A stretch of DNA of 64,000 nucleotides. Source: an uncultured Gemmatimonadales bacterium (lineage in GTDB: Bacteria > Gemmatimonadota > Gemmatimonadetes > Gemmatimonadales > Gemmatimonadaceae). How positions within the stretch are numbered: position 1 is the stretch's first letter; every line of letters begins with the position of its first letter. Both the position numbers and the translations under genes were made by a program. Of this stretch, positions 51,438 to 64,000 are shown in pieces. Where the stretch lies: contig CAVPQB010000004.1 in the NCBI GenBank assembly GCA_963707505.1, forward strand, positions 736,001 to 800,000, read 5' to 3'. The notes under the pieces were generated by a model, which searched no databases, was not told the origin of the DNA, and saw only the letters and a program-made list of their open reading frames with translations.

Positions 51438-51492
51438 GACCCGAAAGCTAACTCCGGCAGAGATGCACGGTGTTAGCCATGCTGTCCGTTCG

Positions 51493-53071
<1,579 letters not shown>

Positions 53072-53102: not shown

Positions 53103-55376
<2,274 letters not shown>

Positions 55377-55562
55377 CTAAGGCTTCCAAAGATCGCACTC
55401 CGAGGGGTCGTGGCGCCACCCTGCGGCCATTTTGCGCGCGGTGACGGTGCCAGGGCGCCCTGGGATGAGGGAGACGGCTCCGCGGCGCGCAGCGAGCGGC
55501 GGCGCGGTGTAGCGTTTTGCCCACTGGTGCGTAATACGTGTGCTGGTATACGATTAGACCGG

Positions 55563-55922
55563 ATGCTCAGACCGACCCAAAGCGTACGACGTAATAGCGG
55601 GCGGTGGGGATGGCGGCTGGCAGCTGTGCTGGCCATCCTTGCCCAATGCTGGATAGCGGTGGCTCCTCTTTCAGAGAGCCGCGGCTTTGGGCTATCCGCG
55701 CACGTCGAGGCGACGGGAAACCATCGGGGTCATTTCACGCACGACGCTGCGTCGTGCGCCGCGTGCTCCGTGCTGTCGCTCCACGCATTGAGCTCGCATC
55801 CGGCGGCGGTCCCGGTGCCGCCCGGCCAGCCGGTCTTCCGGGCGGTCACTACCGCTGAAGCGTGGATCGAAGCAGTTCAGCTTAAATCGGTCCAGCCCAG
55901 GGCGCCTCCCGCGTCTGTGTAG
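55563..55922 (+). CDS. DUF2946/CruR-like leader protein 1 (CxxC + RAPP), putative metal-sensing arrest peptide
   Basis: 119 aa: basic then hydrophobic N-terminus, HVEATGNH..H..HDAASCAAC, Pro-rich linker, RAPPASV-stop. Ends 74 nt before the TolC-family gene. Confidence 0.75.
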   Translation: MLRPTQSVRRNSGRWGWRLAAVLAILAQCWIAVAPLSESRGFGLSAHVEATGNHRGHFTHDAASCAACSVLSLHALSSHPAAVPVPPGQPVFRAVTTAEAWIEAVQLKSVQPRAPPASV

Positions 55923-55996
55923 TCCACGTCCGGTAGTCCGCGTGCATTTCCGCACGCGTGTGCATGCGGGCGTGTCAACACAACGAGAGAGATCGC

Positions 55997-57268
55997 ATGT
56001 CCCTAGCACGCTGGACTGCGCTGCTCGCACTCTGTGCAAGCAGCGCGTCTGCCCAACAACGTCCCGATACCCTGCTACTGACTCGCGCGGCCGCGATCCA
56101 GCTGGCGCTGGAGCACAATCCGCAGCTCGACGTCGCGCGGGAGCAGATCGCCGAGTTTCGCGCAGCCAGGGTTCAGGCTGTCGCAATCCCCGATCCGGCA
56201 GTCACGGCTTCGCTGGATGGGCAGCCAGGCCTGTTCCGCTCTTCAGCCACAGGCCAGAAGAATGTCGGTGCAACGCTGCAGGTTCCCTTTCCTGACAAGT
56301 TCCGTTTGCGCGGTAACGTTGCCGGCGCCGACATACGCAACGCGCAGGCGAACTATACGGCGCTTCAGCGTCAGATCGCTGCGCAGACCGCCGAGCAATA
56401 CGATTCGCTGTTGGTGGCGCTGCGACATCGAACGGATTTTACCGAGGCACAGACGCTCGCGAACGACTTTCTCAAGCGCACCCAGGCGCGGTTCGACGCA
56501 GGAACGGCGCCGCGACTCGACGTCATCAAGGCGCAGGTGGACGTTGCGGCGGCGACCAACGATTTGATATCGAACGAGCGCGCGATCGCGAACGCCTCAT
56601 CAGGATTGAATCGCTTCATGGGGCGCTCGCTTGGCGCTCCAATTGTCGCGACGGATTCGCTGACGGTGCCGCCGTCGCTTCCATCGGTAGATGTGCTCGA
56701 GCGCGAGGCGTTGAACGCGCGGCCGGAGCTCGCAGGTCTGATGGCGCAGCGCAAGGGAGCACACTCGGCCACGACTCTCGCGCGTGAATTCTGGCTTCCC
56801 GACCTCACCCTCGGCGTTTCGCGCGACGTGTCAGGCAACAGTGGGCCGGGAGTTTTCTCTACCGGCCTCGCATTTCCGCTTCCGTTGCTGTTCTGGCAGC
56901 ACACTAAGGGTGAGGTGAGCCAGTCCCTGCACTTCGAGCGTGAGTTGGCCGCGTCGTACCGCGATCTCGAAGCGGAAGTTGGCCAGGACGTGCGAAACGC
57001 ATACGCGGCAGCGAGCACTTCACTACGGCAGGCGATCTACATACGTGATCAGCTGCTTCCATCCGCACGTGAAGCTTACCGGTCGACAGCGGCGAGCTAC
57101 GCGATCGGCGGATCGTCGGCGTTTGAAGTCATCGACGCGCGCCGCACTCTGCTCGATGCGCAGAGTCAGTATTCCGACGCACTGGCCGCGGCCAACACAT
57201 CCAGATCCGATCTGGAACGCGCGGTAAGTGTGCCACTCGAAACCATCGCTTCCGGACCGAACCAATGA
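55997..57268 (+). CDS. TolC-family outer membrane efflux protein (CzcC-like)
   Basis: Signal peptide, AIQLALEHNPQL, RFDAG..PRLDV and Y..G.SS.FEVIDARR. First gene of the RND operon. Confidence 0.9.
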   Translation: MSLARWTALLALCASSASAQQRPDTLLLTRAAAIQLALEHNPQLDVAREQIAEFRAARVQAVAIPDPAVTASLDGQPGLFRSSATGQKNVGATLQVPFPDKFRLRGNVAGADIRNAQANYTALQRQIAAQTAEQYDSLLVALRHRTDFTEAQTLANDFLKRTQARFDAGTAPRLDVIKAQVDVAAATNDLISNERAIANASSGLNRFMGRSLGAPIVATDSLTVPPSLPSVDVLEREALNARPELAGLMAQRKGAHSATTLAREFWLPDLTLGVSRDVSGNSGPGVFSTGLAFPLPLLFWQHTKGEVSQSLHFERELAASYRDLEAEVGQDVRNAYAAASTSLRQAIYIRDQLLPSAREAYRSTAASYAIGGSSAFEVIDARRTLLDAQSQYSDALAAANTSRSDLERAVSVPLETIASGPNQ

Positions 57269-58413
57269 GCATGAAGTCATTCTGTTTGATTGCTGGCCTC
57301 GTTCTCTTGTCGGCTTGTGGAGGGTCGGATGAATCAGCGAATACGGTGACGCCGGCATCGGCCAAGCCATCCAACCTTACACTCACAGCGGAACAACAGG
57401 CGCGTATTCATCTGGACACCATTGCTCCGTCGAAGTTTTATCCCAGCGTATCGACGACCGGTACCGTCGCGTTCAACGGCGACAGGTCGACGCAGGTGCT
57501 GTCACCGGTTTCGGGTCCCGTGACCAAACTGCTCGTGCAGCCGGGTACTGTAGTCGCGAGCGGCACCGCACTGGCAACGGTTTCGTCTCCCGACTTCGCG
57601 GCAGCCGTAGGAAGCTATCGCAAGGCGGTTGTGACGGCGACCAACCTTCAGCGGATCGCCGACCAGGACGTGCAACTCTTCAAGACCGACGCGCTGTCGC
57701 GTCGGGATCTCGAGCAGGCCCAGACCGACGCCGCGTCTGCGGTCGCTGACAGAGAAGCGGCGCTGGAGCAGATCAGATCCCTTGGCATCGACCCGGCCGT
57801 AATCGCGAACGCGACGAACGGTGGCAGTACTGGAGCAGTGCCGGGTGTAATTCGTGCGCCGATTGCCGGAACGGTCGTCGAGCGACTCATCACACCAGGA
57901 CAGTTGCTCCAGGCAGGGGGAACGCCAGCGTTTACCATCGCGGACCTGTCGACTGTATGGGTGATGGCGAACGTGTTCGAGTCCGATCTCGCGAGCGTGC
58001 ACAAGGGCGAGCACGTGACCGTGACTAGCGCAGTGAGTCCAACGCCGTTCGACGGCACTGTCGACTACGTCGGTGCACTGGTCGATTCTTCCACTCGCGC
58101 GACATCCGTACGCCTTGTGGTGCGCAATCGCGATGATCTGCTGAAGCGAGACATGTACGTCAATGTCGCGATCAGGGGCGATCGCCAGAAGTCGGGAATT
58201 CTTGCACCGGTAGATGCCGTGCTTCGCGACGATCAGAATCTTCCGTTCGTCTTTGTCGCGACCGGCAATTCGCCAAATGTGCAGTACGCGCGGCGCAGCG
58301 TCACACTCGGCGCGCGTATCGGCGATGACTACGAGATACTGTCCGGACTGAATCCCGGTGACCGTGTGGTTGCAGAGGGTGCGTTGTTCCTGCAGTTCGC
58401 GGAGAGCCTGTGA
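57265..58413 (+). CDS. RND periplasmic adaptor subunit (CzcB/CusB-like)
   Basis: LSAC lipobox, biotinyl-lipoyl halves (SPVSG, IRAPIAGTV), IADLSTVWV.ANVFE and GL.PGDRVV..G. Confidence 0.92.
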   Translation: MSMKSFCLIAGLVLLSACGGSDESANTVTPASAKPSNLTLTAEQQARIHLDTIAPSKFYPSVSTTGTVAFNGDRSTQVLSPVSGPVTKLLVQPGTVVASGTALATVSSPDFAAAVGSYRKAVVTATNLQRIADQDVQLFKTDALSRRDLEQAQTDAASAVADREAALEQIRSLGIDPAVIANATNGGSTGAVPGVIRAPIAGTVVERLITPGQLLQAGGTPAFTIADLSTVWVMANVFESDLASVHKGEHVTVTSAVSPTPFDGTVDYVGALVDSSTRATSVRLVVRNRDDLLKRDMYVNVAIRGDRQKSGILAPVDAVLRDDQNLPFVFVATGNSPNVQYARRSVTLGARIGDDYEILSGLNPGDRVVAEGALFLQFAESL

Positions 58414-61400
58414 CCCCTCCCGATTCCAATGGTTCGCCGGACGGGTCCGGCGCAAACCATCCACGGAGTGCGCTTCCACAGATAGAGGAGCCCGGTTTGG
58501 CGGAGGGCGCGGCACAATCGTTTGTGAATCGTGTCGTCGCGGCGTCGCTGGCACAGCCACTGTTGACCGGCATTCTCGCGATTGTGTTGATAGGCGTCGG
58601 TGCGTGGTCGTTTTCCCGCCTTCCTGTGGATGCGTATCCCGATGTTTCGCCGCCGATGGTCGAGATCATATCTCAGTGGCCCGGCCATGCTGCGGAAGAG
58701 GTGGAGCGACTGATAACCGTACCCGTCGAAGCTGGTATGAACGGCACGCCGAACCTGAAGGTCATGCGCTCGGTTTCGTTGTACGGACTGTCCGATGTGA
58801 CGATGACTTTCGAGGATCGGACCGACACGTATTTCGCACGGCAGCAGGTGTTCGAGCGCATACCGGATCTGAGCCTGCCTGACGGTGTGTCGTCGTCCGT
58901 CGCGCCGATGTCGTCGCCATCGGGGCTGGTTTATCGATACGTGGTCCAGAGCCCTGACCGCACGCCGATGCAGCTCAAGAACATTCAGGACTGGATCCTG
59001 GAAAAGCAGTACAAGGCGGTTCCTGGTGTTGCCGACATGTCGTCGCTTGGCGGCCAGACGATGCAGTATCAGGTGCTCATCGATCCCACCAAGCTTGCCG
59101 GCGCCGGACTCAACGTGTCCACGCTGGCGAACGCGCTTGGCAACAACAATGGGAACGCGGGCGGCGGCTTCTACTCTGAGGGCGGGCAGTTCTACTACGT
59201 TCGCGGACTCGGCCGAATCAACACTCTTGAGGACATCGCAAACACCGTAGTCGCCGTGCAGAACGGGACACCGGTGCTGGTGAAGGACGTCGGCTCCGTC
59301 GAGATCGGTTATGCGCCGCGGCTCGGTCAGTTCGGCTTCAACGACCAGAACGACGCCGTGGAAGGCGTGATCCTGATGCGCACGGGCGAGCAAGCGCAGA
59401 CGGTGCTCAAGCGCGTCGAACAGAAAACGAACGAGCTCAACACCACAGTTCTTCCGAAGGATGTGAAGGTCGTCCCATTCTACGATCGCAGCGATCTCAT
59501 ACAGCTCACGACCAAGACGGTGGAGGACAATCTCCTCCGCGGTATCATCCTCGTAGTGGTGATTCTGATCTTCTTCCTGTACGACATCCGCTCGGGGCTC
59601 ATCGTCGCGGTATCGATACCGCTGGCGTTGATGTTCGCGTTCATCTGCCTGGATCTCAAGGGCATTCCGGCGAATCTGCTGTCGATCGGAGCGATCGACT
59701 TCGGAATCCTGGTGGATGGCGCCGTAGTGATGGTCGAAAACATCCACCGGCAACTGGCGCGACGACACGGCACCGCGTATGACATAAAGACGGTGATAAC
59801 GGAAGCCGCCGCGGAAGTGGATCGTCCAATCGTGTACGCGATAGCTGTGATCATTGCAGGTTTCTCGCCGATCTACGTCCTTACTGGACCGTCAGGCAGG
59901 CTGTTCAAGCCGATGGCGGATACCACGATCTTTGCTTTGATAGGATCGTTACTGGTGACCATCACGCTTCTTCCGGTGGTGTGTGCGGTGGTGTTGCGCG
60001 GCGGTGTGAAGGAACGCCGGAACGCGACCTTCGAATGGATCCTCCTGCAATACAGGCGCGGTCTGGAATGGAGTCTCCGGCACGCGAAGCTCGTACTGTG
60101 GGGATCGATTGCGATCGGCGTTGCATGCTTGCTGATTATCACGCGGATCGGTGGCGAGTTCATGCCCAAGCTCGACGAGGGTGCGCTCTGGGTTCGAGCG
60201 ACTATGCCGTACACGATCTCGTTCGAGGAGTCCTCGAAGATCGTCCCGCAGATAAGGGCGATCATCAAGTCGTTCCCCGAAGTCACACTGGTAGCGTCTG
60301 AGCACGGACGTCCGGATGACGGAACCGACGCAACGGGATTCTTCAACGCCGAATTCTACGTTGGGCTCAAGCCGTACGGAGAGTGGCACGGCAAGTATCG
60401 CACAAAGCCGGAGCTGATCGCGGCCATCGATCAGAAGTTGCGCGCCTATCCTGGAATCACGTTCAACTATACCCAGCCGGCGGAAGATGCCGTCGACGAA
60501 GCCGAGACGGGCCTCAAGAGCTCGCTCGACGCGAAGATATTCGGGACCGATCTGAAAGTGCTGCAGGAGCGGGGAACACAGATCAAGAAGGTGCTTGATC
60601 AGGTGCGCGGTATCAATCAGGTTACGCTCGTTCAGGAGCTGGGCCAGCCGGCGCTGACTGTAACCGCGGATCGCGCGAAGATGGCGCGCTACGGTCTCAA
60701 CGTTTCGGATGTGAATGGGCTGATCGAGGCCGCTGTCGGCGGCGCGGCGGCAACGCAGGTCGTGCAGGGAGAGCAGTTATACGACCTGGTTGTGCGGTTG
60801 CAACCGCAGTTCCGTGAGACGGCCGACGAGATCGGCAACATTCTCATCGCGACGCCGAGCGGCGCACAGATCCCGCTTCGCGAGGTAACGACGCTCAAGA
60901 TCGATAACGGCGCGTCGTTCATCTACCGACAGGACAACTCGCGGTACATCGGTCTGCAGTATTCCGTGACCGGGCGCGATCTGGCCGGTGCAGTGGATGA
61001 TGCGCGAGCGCAGGTCGCGCGAAAGGTGAAGCTGCCGCCCGGTTACTCGATAGTCTGGGGTGGCGAGTTCGAAGAGTACACGGCCTCGCGTCGTCAGCTG
61101 CAGATAGTGTTGCCGCTGACGCTCGCGGTGATTTTCATCCTGCTATTCGCGTTGTATCGGAACTTCAAATTTCCATTCATCACCGTCGCCGGTGTGCTCC
61201 TCTCTGCGCCACTCGGCGGACTGGTTGCGTTGTGGATATCCGGGACTCCATTCTCGGTCTCGTCCGGGATCGGCTTTCTCGCGTTATTCGGTGTATCCGT
61301 GCAGACGGCCGTGGTCTACATCTCCTACGCCAACGAGCTGCGGATCGGCGGTCTTGGAATCTCGGAGGCGACGCTGGACGCTGCACTGCTGCGATTGAGA

Positions 61401-61598
61401 CCGATCATGATGACGGCACTCGTTGCGGCGCTGGGACTGCTTCCTGCAGCGTTTTCTACGGGAGTGGGATCTGATTCCCAGCGACCATTCGCGATGGTGA
61501 TCGTGGGCGGCCTCTTTTCGCGTCTTCTGCTGAGTGTGTTCCTGATGCCAGTATTGTACCTGATGGTGTCGCGCGATAACGACGAGCTGCACGTCTAG
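58410..61598 (+). CDS. CzcA/CusA family heavy-metal efflux RND permease
   Basis: LPVDAYPDVS, AEEVERLIT, SIGAIDFGILVDGAVVMVEN, EFMPKLDEG and RLRPIMMTALVA.LGLLP. Confidence 0.95.
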   Translation: MTPPDSNGSPDGSGANHPRSALPQIEEPGLAEGAAQSFVNRVVAASLAQPLLTGILAIVLIGVGAWSFSRLPVDAYPDVSPPMVEIISQWPGHAAEEVERLITVPVEAGMNGTPNLKVMRSVSLYGLSDVTMTFEDRTDTYFARQQVFERIPDLSLPDGVSSSVAPMSSPSGLVYRYVVQSPDRTPMQLKNIQDWILEKQYKAVPGVADMSSLGGQTMQYQVLIDPTKLAGAGLNVSTLANALGNNNGNAGGGFYSEGGQFYYVRGLGRINTLEDIANTVVAVQNGTPVLVKDVGSVEIGYAPRLGQFGFNDQNDAVEGVILMRTGEQAQTVLKRVEQKTNELNTTVLPKDVKVVPFYDRSDLIQLTTKTVEDNLLRGIILVVVILIFFLYDIRSGLIVAVSIPLALMFAFICLDLKGIPANLLSIGAIDFGILVDGAVVMVENIHRQLARRHGTAYDIKTVITEAAAEVDRPIVYAIAVIIAGFSPIYVLTGPSGRLFKPMADTTIFALIGSLLVTITLLPVVCAVVLRGGVKERRNATFEWILLQYRRGLEWSLRHAKLVLWGSIAIGVACLLIITRIGGEFMPKLDEGALWVRATMPYTISFEESSKIVPQIRAIIKSFPEVTLVASEHGRPDDGTDATGFFNAEFYVGLKPYGEWHGKYRTKPELIAAIDQKLRAYPGITFNYTQPAEDAVDEAETGLKSSLDAKIFGTDLKVLQERGTQIKKVLDQVRGINQVTLVQELGQPALTVTADRAKMARYGLNVSDVNGLIEAAVGGAAATQVVQGEQLYDLVVRLQPQFRETADEIGNILIATPSGAQIPLREVTTLKIDNGASFIYRQDNSRYIGLQYSVTGRDLAGAVDDARAQVARKVKLPPGYSIVWGGEFEEYTASRRQLQIVLPLTLAVIFILLFALYRNFKFPFITVAGVLLSAPLGGLVALWISGTPFSVSSGIGFLALFGVSVQTAVVYISYANELRIGGLGISEATLDAALLRLRPIMMTALVAALGLLPAAFSTGVGSDSQRPFAMVIVGGLFSRLLLSVFLMPVLYLMVSRDNDELHV

Positions 61599-61599
61599 G

Positions 61600-61980
61600 G
61601 TGCCGTTTCGGATGATGGCAACTGGTGCAGGCGCGCGCGGGCGGCCGCGGGGACTCAGAGTCTTCGCGCTCGCCTTCGCGTTGCTGCAGTTCGGCCTTCA
61701 GGGGACGTTTGCGGTCAGCGACGGCTACGAAGAGCAGGCCAGTTCGCACGTCGCGCCCGTTCACGCCGAGATACCGGGCAATCACCACCATCGCCTGCAC
61801 GACAGCGATTGTGTCGTCTGTCACGTCCTTGCGACTGGCTCGACGGTGCCCCCGCGCGCAGTTCCAGCGTGGCTCGACGCCGAGCGTGTTTCGGTCGCGC
61901 CTCCGACCGAGATCGGTGCACGTCCCTACGCCCTCGTTGCCGGCTCCCGGCTCGCTCGCGCACCGCCGGTGAAAGTGTGA
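61600..61980 (+). CDS. DUF2946/CruR-like leader protein 2 (CxxC + RAPP), putative metal-sensing arrest peptide (start 61600-61615)
   Basis: Basic then hydrophobic N-terminus, HAEIPGNHHHRLHDSDCVVC, Pro-rich linker, RAPPVKV-stop. Ends 86 nt before a TonB-dependent receptor. Confidence 0.78.
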   Translation: MPFRMMATGAGARGRPRGLRVFALAFALLQFGLQGTFAVSDGYEEQASSHVAPVHAEIPGNHHHRLHDSDCVVCHVLATGSTVPPRAVPAWLDAERVSVAPPTEIGARPYALVAGSRLARAPPVKV

Positions 61981-62066
61981 TCTGAAGGTGGAGGCAGAGC
62001 CTCCGCCATGGATTTACGTCGCCGCCACTTTCTGGCGGCGCGATCACACTATCGCATTCAAAATTC

Positions 62067-64000
62067 ATGTCAAATCAACGCGTTTCAGCGCGCGTGGTGG
62101 CGTGTGCGCTCTCCCTGGCCGCGTGCGTCGCCGCCGTTCCAGCGCACGCTTTCGCACTGTCATCAGTCGCGGAAGTCACCGATGCCGGCATCGGCCCGAT
62201 GGCACGTGGCGATCTCACCGGCACAGTAACCGATAGCGCATCCGGTCAACCGCTTCCCAGTGCCGAGGTGAGCGTGATGCAGGGTGGCCGCATCGTGCTC
62301 ACAGCAAGCACCGATGCTTTCGGCCGGTACATCGCGCACGACCTTCCATCCGGCACGTACACCATCAACGTGCGCCTGATCGGCTTTCGGATTCAATCGC
62401 GTGATGTAGCCGTTGGTCCCTCGGGCGACATTCGCGCAGACTTTCGCTTACCGGTGGTAGCGCTGAGTCTCTCTTCAGTTGCTGTAACCGCTGCGATTCC
62501 GCTCGCAGTCGATACGAGGTCCGGCGATCAACGCTTCAAGCAGGACTCATATCACGGCGCGCCGACCAACACCACATCGCAGATCCTTCAGCAGTCGATT
62601 GCCGGCGCAGCTCGTGCACCGACGGGTGAGGTACACATCCGCGGGCAGCACGCCGAGTACACGTATTATGTCGATGGTGTACCCGTGCCGGCTGGAATAT
62701 CTGGCAGCCTCAACGAGCTGTTCGATCCCAGTATCGTGAACCAGATCGATTTTCAGACAGGTGGCTGGGACGCAGAGTATGGAAACAAGAATGCCGCCGT
62801 TGTGAACGTCCAGACGCGCATTCCTGTCGGCGGATTTCATAGCACCATCTCCGGGTACGGCGGCTCGTTCAACACGAACGGCGAGGGAATCACGGCGAGC
62901 ACGAACAGCGGCCCGTGGGGATTCTTCGTTTCAGGCAGTCGCAAATCCACTGACATGCGACTGGAACCCGTAGTTTTCGATACCGCGCGCGACAAGGTGG
63001 TCAACTTCCACAACCATGGAGAGGATTACTCCGCCTTCGCCAAGGTGCAATACACCCCGAACGCATCCAACGTGTTCGACCTCGACGCGAGCCTCTCGAC
63101 GACGCGTTTCCAGGTGCCCTATGATTCGACCGGTAACGTCGTGCTGGATGACCATCAGCGCGATCGCAACGCGTTCGTGAACCTCGGCTATCGTCACATC
63201 TTCGGCGCTGACACGACCGCCGGAGTCGAAGGCGGTGCGACCACGCAGTCTCGCGTGGCGGAGCTGTTCGTTGGAGGCTTCGTGCGATCCGGTGGGTTGA
63301 TGTACATGCCGGGCGCTGGCGACTCTGCGCAATTCGTGTTCTTTCCAGATACGCTCAACGCGTACAACCTGCGCGAAAATCGCAATTTCACGACGTACGG
63401 CATCAAGGCCGACTACACCGTGCATCCTGCGCGCGAGTTGGAATTCAAGTTCGGAACGCTGAGCCAGTACACGACTGGCCACGAAGATTTCGTCACCACG
63501 ACGAATTCCGGCGCGTCGGGTCCTGCATCCAATTCGAATCTCAAGGGATACGATGTCGGTGGATACGCCCAGACCTCGTACTCTCCAATTGAGCGGTTCG
63601 AGATCAGAGCCGGTGTTCGCTACGACGCGCATAATGCACCATTTGCCGGGACACAGACTCAACTGAGTCCCCGTATTCGACTCAACTTCTTCCCGGACCC
63701 TGGCAACACATTCTACCTGTACTACGGGCGACTCTTCGTTCCGACCAACGTCGAGGATCTCCGCGCGATTACGAGCGTCGCACAGCAGGGAGTCACCGCA
63801 GCACCAACGCTGCCGGAGCGCGACAACTTCTACGAGGCCGGGTACATTCACCGCTTCCCGTTCGGCCTCGTGTCCAAGTTTGCGGGCTACCACAAGCAGA
63901 GTACGCCGGGCATCGATGACAACACGGTCCCAGGCTCAGCTGTCGTCACGTCGGTGAACATTGCGCAGGTACGCATCACTGGACTCGAGACTGTACAGGA
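62067..64000 (+). CDS. TonB-dependent receptor, truncated by the window end
   Basis: Manual translation: signal peptide MSNQRVSARVVACALSLAAC..., carboxypeptidase-regulatory-like domain, plug VHIRGQHAEYTYYVDGVP, GGWDAEYG and barrel strands GVRYD/LSPR. The start and the window end are in the same frame. Confidence 0.9.
   Translation, partial: MSNQRVSARVVACALSLAACVAAVPAHAFALSSVAEVTDAGIGPMARGDLTGTVTDSASGQPLPSAEVSVMQGGRIVLTASTDAFGRYIAHDLPSGTYTINVRLIGFRIQSRDVAVGPSGDIRADFRLPVVALSLSSVAVTAAIPLAVDTRSGDQRFKQDSYHGAPTNTTSQILQQSIAGAARAPTGEVHIRGQHAEYTYYVDGVPVPAGISGSLNELFDPSIVNQIDFQTGGWDAEYGNKNAAVVNVQTRIPVGGFHSTISGYGGSFNTNGEGITASTNSGPWGFFVSGSRKSTDMRLEPVVFDTARDKVVNFHNHGEDYSAFAKVQYTPNASNVFDLDASLSTTRFQVPYDSTGNVVLDDHQRDRNAFVNLGYRHIFGADTTAGVEGGATTQSRVAELFVGGFVRSGGLMYMPGAGDSAQFVFFPDTLNAYNLRENRNFTTYGIKADYTVHPARELEFKFGTLSQYTTGHEDFVTTTNSGASGPASNSNLKGYDVGGYAQTSYSPIERFEIRAGVRYDAHNAPFAGTQTQLSPRIRLNFFPDPGNTFYLYYGRLFVPTNVEDLRAITSVAQQGVTAAPTLPERDNFYEAGYIHRFPFGLVSKFAGYHKQSTPGIDDNTVPGSAVVTSVNIAQVRITGLETVQ

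Follow-up and report, generated by a model that had tools for sequence, protein, structure and literature searches.

Background

CruR (Bp2923) of Bordetella pertussis is a leader peptide in which a CxxC motif is followed, 45 residues on, by RAPP; a TonB receptor stays on for as long as the ribosome is stalled, and copper ends the stall (PMC9426467), and the arrest on two proline codons has been toeprinted (PMC12992588). CutF of Rhodobacter capsulatus has the opposite sign, and its stall opens a stem over the ribosome-binding site (bioRxiv 2025.02.05.636593). The experimentally tested cases of this leader family concern copper only. Here we describe two putative leaders of the CruR/CutF (DUF2946) family, one before a resistance-nodulation-division (RND) pump system and one before a TonB-dependent receptor, in 64,000 nucleotides (nt) of contig CAVPQB010000004.1 (the window) from an uncultured Gemmatimonadales bacterium (genome 3.66 Mb, 83% complete). 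The locus would extend arrest-peptide sensing to zinc-type cargo. An original prediction made from the window had proposed a metal-sensing system with two switches, and its family assignment and two-switch idea hold: the two are divergent members of one leader family.

With CruR, these leaders share a putative export signal, CxxC, about 45 residues to RAPP, a three-residue tail, a long spacer, a TonB-receptor cargo and a stall predicted to be the on state. They differ from it in a site richer in His, in a cargo that suggests a divalent metal and not copper, in a second leader that would gate an RND pump in the same run, and in a predicted tail-to-start stem. CutF is exported, as these leaders may be, and its stalled ribosome unfolds a stem hiding the downstream ribosome-binding site, as is predicted here, whereas its CxxxC, proline-rich tail, copper-promoted stall and detoxifying oxidase cargo (PMC9973294) set it apart. 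CzcI-czcCBA of Cupriavidus and CC2720-czrCBA of Caulobacter also have a small His/Cys CutF-like gene directly before a divalent-metal RND operon. However, CzcI is reported to be without a C-terminal proline motif (PMC9973294), and metal excess induces czcCBA and czrCBA via transcription factors (PMC9973294, PMC4176598), whereas no Fur/Zur was found in the genus considered here. The pump resembles ZniCBA/ZneCBA of Cupriavidus metallidurans (PDB 4K0E) in its acidic proximal site, the ZniA DxxGFFNAE stretch and the DFG-D-EN relay (PMC7060636, Table S7); it differs in having Leu in place of E136, in its predicted leader peptide control as against the antisense RNA implicated for zni, and in being interchangeable with an ATP-binding cassette (ABC) importer in relatives. 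That alternative cargo shares with AztABC/ZnuABC (cluster A-I) a ZnuA-family protein, an ABC-3 permease and, at 6 of 18 loci, an AztA-like ATPase, but here a RAPP leader and a 16-strand porin come first, and the other 12 loci have no ATPase gene there.

Each half of the tandem is already known. The genes found most often next to 5,334 CutF-like genes encode RND outer-membrane factors, with TonB-like proteins and PCuAC chaperones next in frequency (PMC9973294), and source data list at least 530 RAPP genes before TolC-family genes and at least 50 before CusA/CzcA (PMC12992588). The novelty claimed at the outset was overstated, as a leader before an RND system, a leader before a TonB receptor and the opposite polarity of CruR and CutF have all been published (PMC9973294; bioRxiv 2025.02.05.636593). 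What is new here is the swap of importer or pump behind the same switch. Literature searches, none of them worded for the tandem or the swap alone, met no published account of either. The sequences suggest to us, at a probability of roughly 55%, that both leaders are same-sign switches, turned on by scarcity of a divalent metal (probably zinc), and that they drive a ZniA-like pump together with a TonB-dependent receptor.

Results

Profile searches bore out the predicted plus-strand run of leader 1, outer-membrane factor (OEP), adaptor, CusA/CzcA-family RND, leader 2 and TonB-dependent receptor (Table 1). In line with what had been stated for the window, no regulator gene was seen beside the run, either in the window or in the 10 kb beyond it. 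Leader 1 has CAAC at residues 65-68 (55755-55766) and RAPP at 55899-55910, followed by the tail ASV and the stop. In leader 2, which begins 13 nt past the RND stop and is thus internal in the run (alternative starts at 61600 and 61615), CVVC stands at residues 67-70 (61810-61821) and RAPP at 61957-61968, with the tail VKV before the stop. The common design noticed originally was confirmed, with 44 (leader 1) and 45 (leader 2) residues from CxxC to RAPP and three-residue tails. Both N-termini are basic and continue, judged by hydrophobicity alone, into a 15-residue hydrophobic stretch (mean 2.4 and 1.9). The spacers measure 74 nt from leader 1 to OEP and 86 nt from leader 2 to the receptor. Codon differences from the congener G015 are mostly synonymous (15 of 21 and 27 of 39).

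Against the DUF2946 hidden Markov model (PF11162, gathering score 23.7 bits), membership held for leader 2 (31.1 bits) and failed for leader 1 (12.5 bits, E 0.25), and none of four related leaders reached the gathering score. A profile of 144 leaders from other loci, built without the closest relatives, returned only these two from the genome (E 7.5e-19, and 9e-17 for leader 1), the next match having only E 0.93. This shared profile ties leader 1 to leader 2, and leader 1 was therefore filed as CruR/CutF-like and not as a Pfam member. A six-frame scan of the genome for CxxC...R[AGSP]PP-stop gave 10 matches, and since only these two have exact RAPP with a three-residue tail, they are not chance occurrences. 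The conservation in homologs that the original prediction implied was found: RAPP/RGPP is constant, and the distance from the Cys/His cluster to RAPP is 43-46 residues in 110 of the 114 leaders with scorable spacing. CxxC itself varies, being present in 52 of 71 receptor leaders, with CxxH in 7 and other forms in the rest. A CxxH or His-x3-Cys-type site replaces CxxC, with RAPP and the distance kept, at loci L035, L065, L085, L093, L109, L120, L121 and L039-L041.

Leaders recur before three kinds of cassette. One lies upstream of 69 of 79 receptor loci with room for it (52 found by pattern, 17 more by profile or eye), of 33 of 35 such pump loci and of 16 of 18 importer loci. The third, importer cassette consists of porin, ZnuA-family binding protein and ABC-3 permease. 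Its porin gave a 16-strand model with a porin fold, and its parts best match AztA/AztB/AztC, all below equivalog cut-offs. The porin belongs to no Pfam or NCBIfam family and has a His-bearing motif at its end; at the importer loci without an ATPase gene (e.g. L064:6133-9500), none lies between binding protein and permease. In the synteny survey that had been suggested, the order seen in the window recurred in six other genomes (L032, L033, L039, L097, L110, L143). Pump and receptor cassettes may also be convergent (L055, L070), divergent (L114, L142), reversed (L041) or far apart, while leader-importer-leader-receptor occurs in L064, L082, L092 and others and leader-pump-leader-importer in L134. 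These convergent, divergent, reversed and distant cassettes rule out a fixed tandem operon; the tandem is thus one arrangement among several of movable cassettes. At L080:1772-10000, L101 and L103, at least three RAPP leaders stand in one locus, and each of them precedes an exported gene of its own.

The swap is clearest between L055 (RND) and L061 (porin-importer). Their leaders are 56% identical, and 101 of 117 bases agree from just before RAPP via a 41-nt spacer into the first cargo codons, after which the sequences diverge. Five further cross-cargo leader pairs have 45-50% identity. By comparison, same-locus leader pairs have 24-38% identity in 26 of 28 cases, and the other two, both RND/receptor pairs (L039, L041), have 58-60%. 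In the cross-cargo pair L144/L175, both cassettes (the importer with ATPase) end beside maeB, the malic enzyme gene, which is present in 13 of the 40 RND and 8 of the 19 importer loci retrieved; maeB marks a chromosomal slot often taken by either cassette in relatives.

Pump and importer are nearly exclusive. Among 200 genomes from the order with a completeness of 90% or more, 59 have the pump (at least 69% identity) and 91 the ZnuA family; both occur in 4 against 26.8 expected. With an ABC-3 query instead (E below 1e-25, 8 weaker matches set aside), both occur in 6, and three families each show the deficit. Two unpublished genomes, G096 (pump) and G207 (importer), are among those counted. Pump-only and importer-only genomes stand side by side in 8 genera. 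Because the importer lies behind the same switch and is rarely found together with the pump, the pump is likely on in scarcity and not in excess. Of 45 genomes with the receptor, 42 have pump or importer, and 26 have the pump against 13.3 expected. A pairing of the pump with ZIP uptake was rejected, as the two are not associated (ZIP in 44 of 59 pump genomes and 148 of 200 overall).

The closest solved relative of the pump is ZneA (E 9e-218). The proton relay DFG-x3-DG-x5-EN is intact and kept across 41 pump sequences, and D640, E648, D693 and E697 correspond to ZneA 602, 610, 654 and 658. The HME3a features (DFG-x3-D-x6-EN in transmembrane helix 4; acidic 602, 610, 654 and 658) are present in 37-41 of the 41 sequences per position, and the 602-610 stretch reads DATGFFNAE as compared with DAAGFFNAE in ZniA. 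The position of ZneA E136, a proximal Glu kept in every HME1-3 pump tabulated in PMC7060636, is Leu in 41 of 41, and the pump is therefore called ZniA-like and not a plain HME3a member. A copper/silver pump (HME4, CusA/SilA) was rejected: the CusA methionine triad M573-M623-M672 (PMC8092243) is replaced by V, N and E in 41 of 41, which makes copper unlikely. In published work, ZneA moves zinc outward in liposomes (PMC8277102), and ZniCBA rises more than tenfold under ethylenediaminetetraacetic acid (EDTA) but not under metal shock, a result its authors call unexpected; ZneCBA is likewise raised by EDTA and not by metal shock (PMC11647595).

No Fur/Zur family match was found in the home genome or in five congeners that are 96-99% complete (genus set G000, G003, G004, G011, G015, G016). 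Its loss is not a trait of the whole order, since 169 of 200 genomes have a match. Nor was a ZnuA family member found in the home genome (83% complete). It has one ZIP and three Nramp matches, one of the latter adjoining a gene of DtxR/MntR type; Nramp and MgtE genes are other metal entry routes. To judge from these sequences, zinc would be the likeliest metal, with cobalt, nickel or manganese possible. A copper-specific cargo of the CruR type was rejected, given a pump without the Met triad, OprC only 45th among the receptor's fold matches and an AztABC-like alternative cargo.

The receptor has invariant His in plug and barrel. Its fold resembles TonB receptors broadly and none closely, and neither sequence, Atlas nor fold comparison assigned a substrate. 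Named relatives are nearly all Gemmatimonadota records. Ten receptor copies are leaderless (among them L037, L038, L051, L067, L088, L100, L107 and L117), and most of these adjoin a LytS/LytTR-type two-component pair, which suggests a second control mode for the same receptor family. At L079:5351-7039 and 26 other loci there is a conserved lipoprotein-like gene of 560 amino acids (aa) that matches peptidase MA weakly and often stands after the receptor; a relative of it is present elsewhere in the home genome.

For the leader RNA, the stem, overall cognate/swapped and simulated-stall tests kept 80 of 101 rows, dropping 7 doubtful start calls and rows without a start call. A later importer/RND stem set scored 25 of 52 porin and 44 of 49 RND targets, the unscored porin targets being truncated, without a leader by the strict rule or without a start call. 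Of the duplicate stretches L033/L044 and L055/L126, L044 was dropped from the RNA tests and both L055 and L126 stand in the later set. The predicted leader 1 stem has 17.5 expected tail-to-start pairs and was seen in each of five congeners folded singly (6.6 to 20 pairs). Behind leader 2, the predicted outer stem pairs 61974-61982, which contain its last codon and stop, with 62042-62050, and encloses hairpins at 61987-62007 and 62020-62040. Covariation among 3 sequences gave 3 compensatory pairs in the second inner hairpin and none in the outer stem. Folding predicts that the tail and stop base-pair with the 30-nt stretch leading up to the following start in 43 of 64 receptor, 27 of 44 RND and 17 of 25 importer spacers, as compared with 13% of 200 gene pairs of the own genome, in which starts were crudely called. 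Cognate tail/start pairs bind at -16.3 kcal/mol and swapped ones at -12.6 kcal/mol (0 of 10,000 permutations, 44 non-redundant; RND class alone, 1 of 10,000, 22 rows), and this argues for selection, though kin are included. When a stall is simulated, the start becomes easier to reach by more than 2 kcal/mol in 26 of 64, 4 of 11 and 3 of 5 spacers and harder to reach in 1, 1 and 0, counts that have no control set, and the effect is alike in RND and receptor spacers (p 0.79). We conclude from these models that the RNA architecture is probably common to all cargoes. It had been suggested that one sensor is read out oppositely through different RNA structures; this found no support, the same predicted stem standing behind RND, receptor and importer leaders.

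The hexamer predicted before leader 1 makes a leaderless transcript likely. In 90 of 154 leaders a TAnnnT sequence is located 4-11 nt upstream of the start, a count inflated by the several candidate starts allowed per leader, and the same holds for 3.8% of 858 window ATGs. Over the 154 loci, the position of the -10-like hexamer, 6-10 bases upstream of the start, suggests that leaderless transcripts are a common design. Before leader 2, the sole TAnnnT hexamer overlaps the RND stop codon and is absent in the close tandems L033, L039 and L097. As no conserved -10 hexamer is present, transcripts of the receptor gene probably arise by read-through from the pump genes. The two switches would then probably act on the receptor one after the other, an arrangement that suits same-sign control; an internal promoter is possible. 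A Shine-Dalgarno-like stretch precedes leader 2, which weakens strict translational coupling to the pump, and none was found before the receptor ATG. No intrinsic terminators were found in the spacers. A sigma-70 scan, which misses a -10-only pattern, gave 1 site against 2.5 expected. The C-over-G excess that marks Rho sites is weak in the two leaders (1.13 and 1.17, without a control set).

Table 1. Positions of the leaders, their predicted RNA and promoter elements, and the neighbouring genes
Feature	Position in window	Strand	Remarks
maeB, malic enzyme gene (divergent flank)	53103..55376	-	Pfam malic/PTA_PTB
Predicted -10 hexamer TACGAT	55549..55554	+	TAnnnT pattern; 8 nt before leader 1 ATG
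Leader 1, 119 aa	55563..55922	+	Hydrophobic segment 19-33; H47/H54/H57/H60
Predicted stem, leader 1 tail and stop with purine-rich stretch before OEP start	55906..55991	+	Encloses 74-nt spacer; fold z -1.9
Outer-membrane factor (OEP, CzcC/TolC family)	55997..57268	+	PF02321, E 1e-48
Periplasmic adaptor, CzcB-like	57265..58413	+	PF16576, TIGR01730
Heavy-metal RND pump, ZniA/ZneA (HME3a) type	58410..61598	+	TIGR00914, 912 bits (cut-off 701)
Leader 2, 122 aa	61612..61980	+	Hydrophobic segment 15-29; H46/H51/H58-60/H63
Predicted multibranch RNA behind leader 2	61974..62050	+	z -3.3 and -4.9
TonB-dependent receptor, N-terminal carboxypeptidase-regulatory-like domain, 803 aa	62067..64000, runs past window	+	Profile search

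Discussion

Same-sign switches could work as follows. The N-terminus of each leader looks like that of an exported protein, a His/Cys site follows, and RAPP comes three codons ahead of the stop; by analogy with CruR the ribosome would stall at RAPP. A stalled ribosome has a footprint of about 15 bases from the P site and hence would cover the tail codons. This would open the stem tied to the next start region, so that the stall is the on state; behind leader 2, where the receptor is without a Shine-Dalgarno sequence, the read-out may be protection from termination. Metal on the His/Cys site would, again as in CruR, free the stall and let the stem close. Comparison with relatives places porin, ZnuA-family protein and ABC-3 permease behind what appears to be the same switch, with pump and importer nearly exclusive. 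The pump would then contribute to metal acquisition, and the likeliest way is the one proposed for ZniCBA, in which export driven by protons recycles or sorts cations of the periplasm. Of the two explanations originally offered for export and uptake in one locus, joint action of pump and receptor in one pathway fits better, and opposite read-out by RNA is unsupported.

Several points weigh against this reading. The two leaders share just 34% identity, and in a quick tree most leaders group with others of the same cargo (11 label changes, where shuffled labels give 27), so each cassette could have its own polarity. Within one family CruR and CutF have opposite signs, and in Caulobacter the zinc-induced czrCBA operon begins with a DUF2946 gene (PMC4176598). 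The leader 1 stem is absent from a consensus fold of spacer 1 made from four congener sequences; the tail-to-start stem is missed in 17 of 44 RND, 21 of 64 receptor and 8 of 25 importer spacers; and the simulated stall is near zero in the window's own spacers (-1.3 kcal/mol for OEP, +1.0 for the receptor). Neither cassette is present in 56 of 200 genomes. Since the genomes are related, p-values for the exclusion overstate it, and in five genera with known totals 1 overlap stands against 4.0 expected. Competition for one slot could also exclude mechanically, without functional equivalence.

Opposite signs might instead reside in the peptides, with metal prolonging the stall of leader 1 in the manner of CutF (pump on in excess) and releasing that of leader 2 in the manner of CruR, through the same RNA read-out; pump and importer would then exclude each other via habitat or slot competition. 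The difference in sign between CruR and CutF makes this conceivable, as does the extra Cys found in 53 of 71 receptor leaders as compared with 2 of 46 RND leaders. Although the leaders are dissimilar and mostly follow cargo, RND/receptor pairs can be much closer (L039, L041) and the switch is near-identical across the L055/L061 swap. The pump's proton relay is intact and CC2720-czrCBA is zinc-induced, yet the pump carries the ZniA motif and the receptor is enriched in pump genomes; leader 2 has its own Shine-Dalgarno-like stretch, yet without a conserved -10 hexamer before it the receptor is likely transcribed through the pump genes. On this balance we regard opposite signs as unlikely.

The RND system might also import metal itself under same-sign switches, its outer-membrane factor, adaptor and RND replacing porin, binding protein and permease one for one. 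That three-for-three replacement behind one switch, the Leu at the otherwise conserved E136 position and the 55 of 59 pump genomes without a ZnuA-family protein (15 of these also without ZIP) would accord with import. The antiport motif is intact, however, related pumps of published transport direction export, and Nramp and MgtE genes give other entry routes, so that import through the pump seems to us improbable. The broader scenario to which it belongs is similarly doubtful, namely that a ZniA-like RND has repeatedly taken the place of the porin-ZnuA-ABC3 importer within Gemmatimonadales, behind one ribosome-stalling zinc switch, because it performs the same task, as an acquisition RND, possibly inward, with serial arrest peptides also controlling the TonB receptor in a genus without Zur. 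That the leaders chiefly monitor Sec export capacity in the manner of SecM/ApdA and pace exported cargo, the His/Cys site being secondary, is very improbable: every known cargo begins with an exported protein and the metal motif varies where RAPP/RGPP does not, but the His/Cys cluster keeps its distance to RAPP and all recognised cargoes are metal transport genes.

The same-sign reading has consequences beyond this locus. A natural swap, with importer or efflux-type pump behind one switch, makes the puzzle of ZniCBA expression under starvation (PMC11647595) testable. If the same-sign model is true, pumps of soil Gemmatimonadota annotated 'cobalt-zinc-cadmium resistance CzcA' would be starvation genes, and the counting of metal-resistance genes in soil metagenomes would be affected.

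Flanking genes

Just past the window, after the receptor, lies a gene for an exported 264-aa protein (L001:10673-11467, plus strand) that has no Pfam or NCBIfam family and was not found in the other receptor loci. On the other side of the run, the phosphoenolpyruvate carboxykinase gene at 51473-53071 (minus strand) has a Pfam match that covers the profile only as far as position 378 of 465. The C-terminal part of the protein is encoded in another, overlapping frame (51493-51888), which points to a frameshift or an assembly error.

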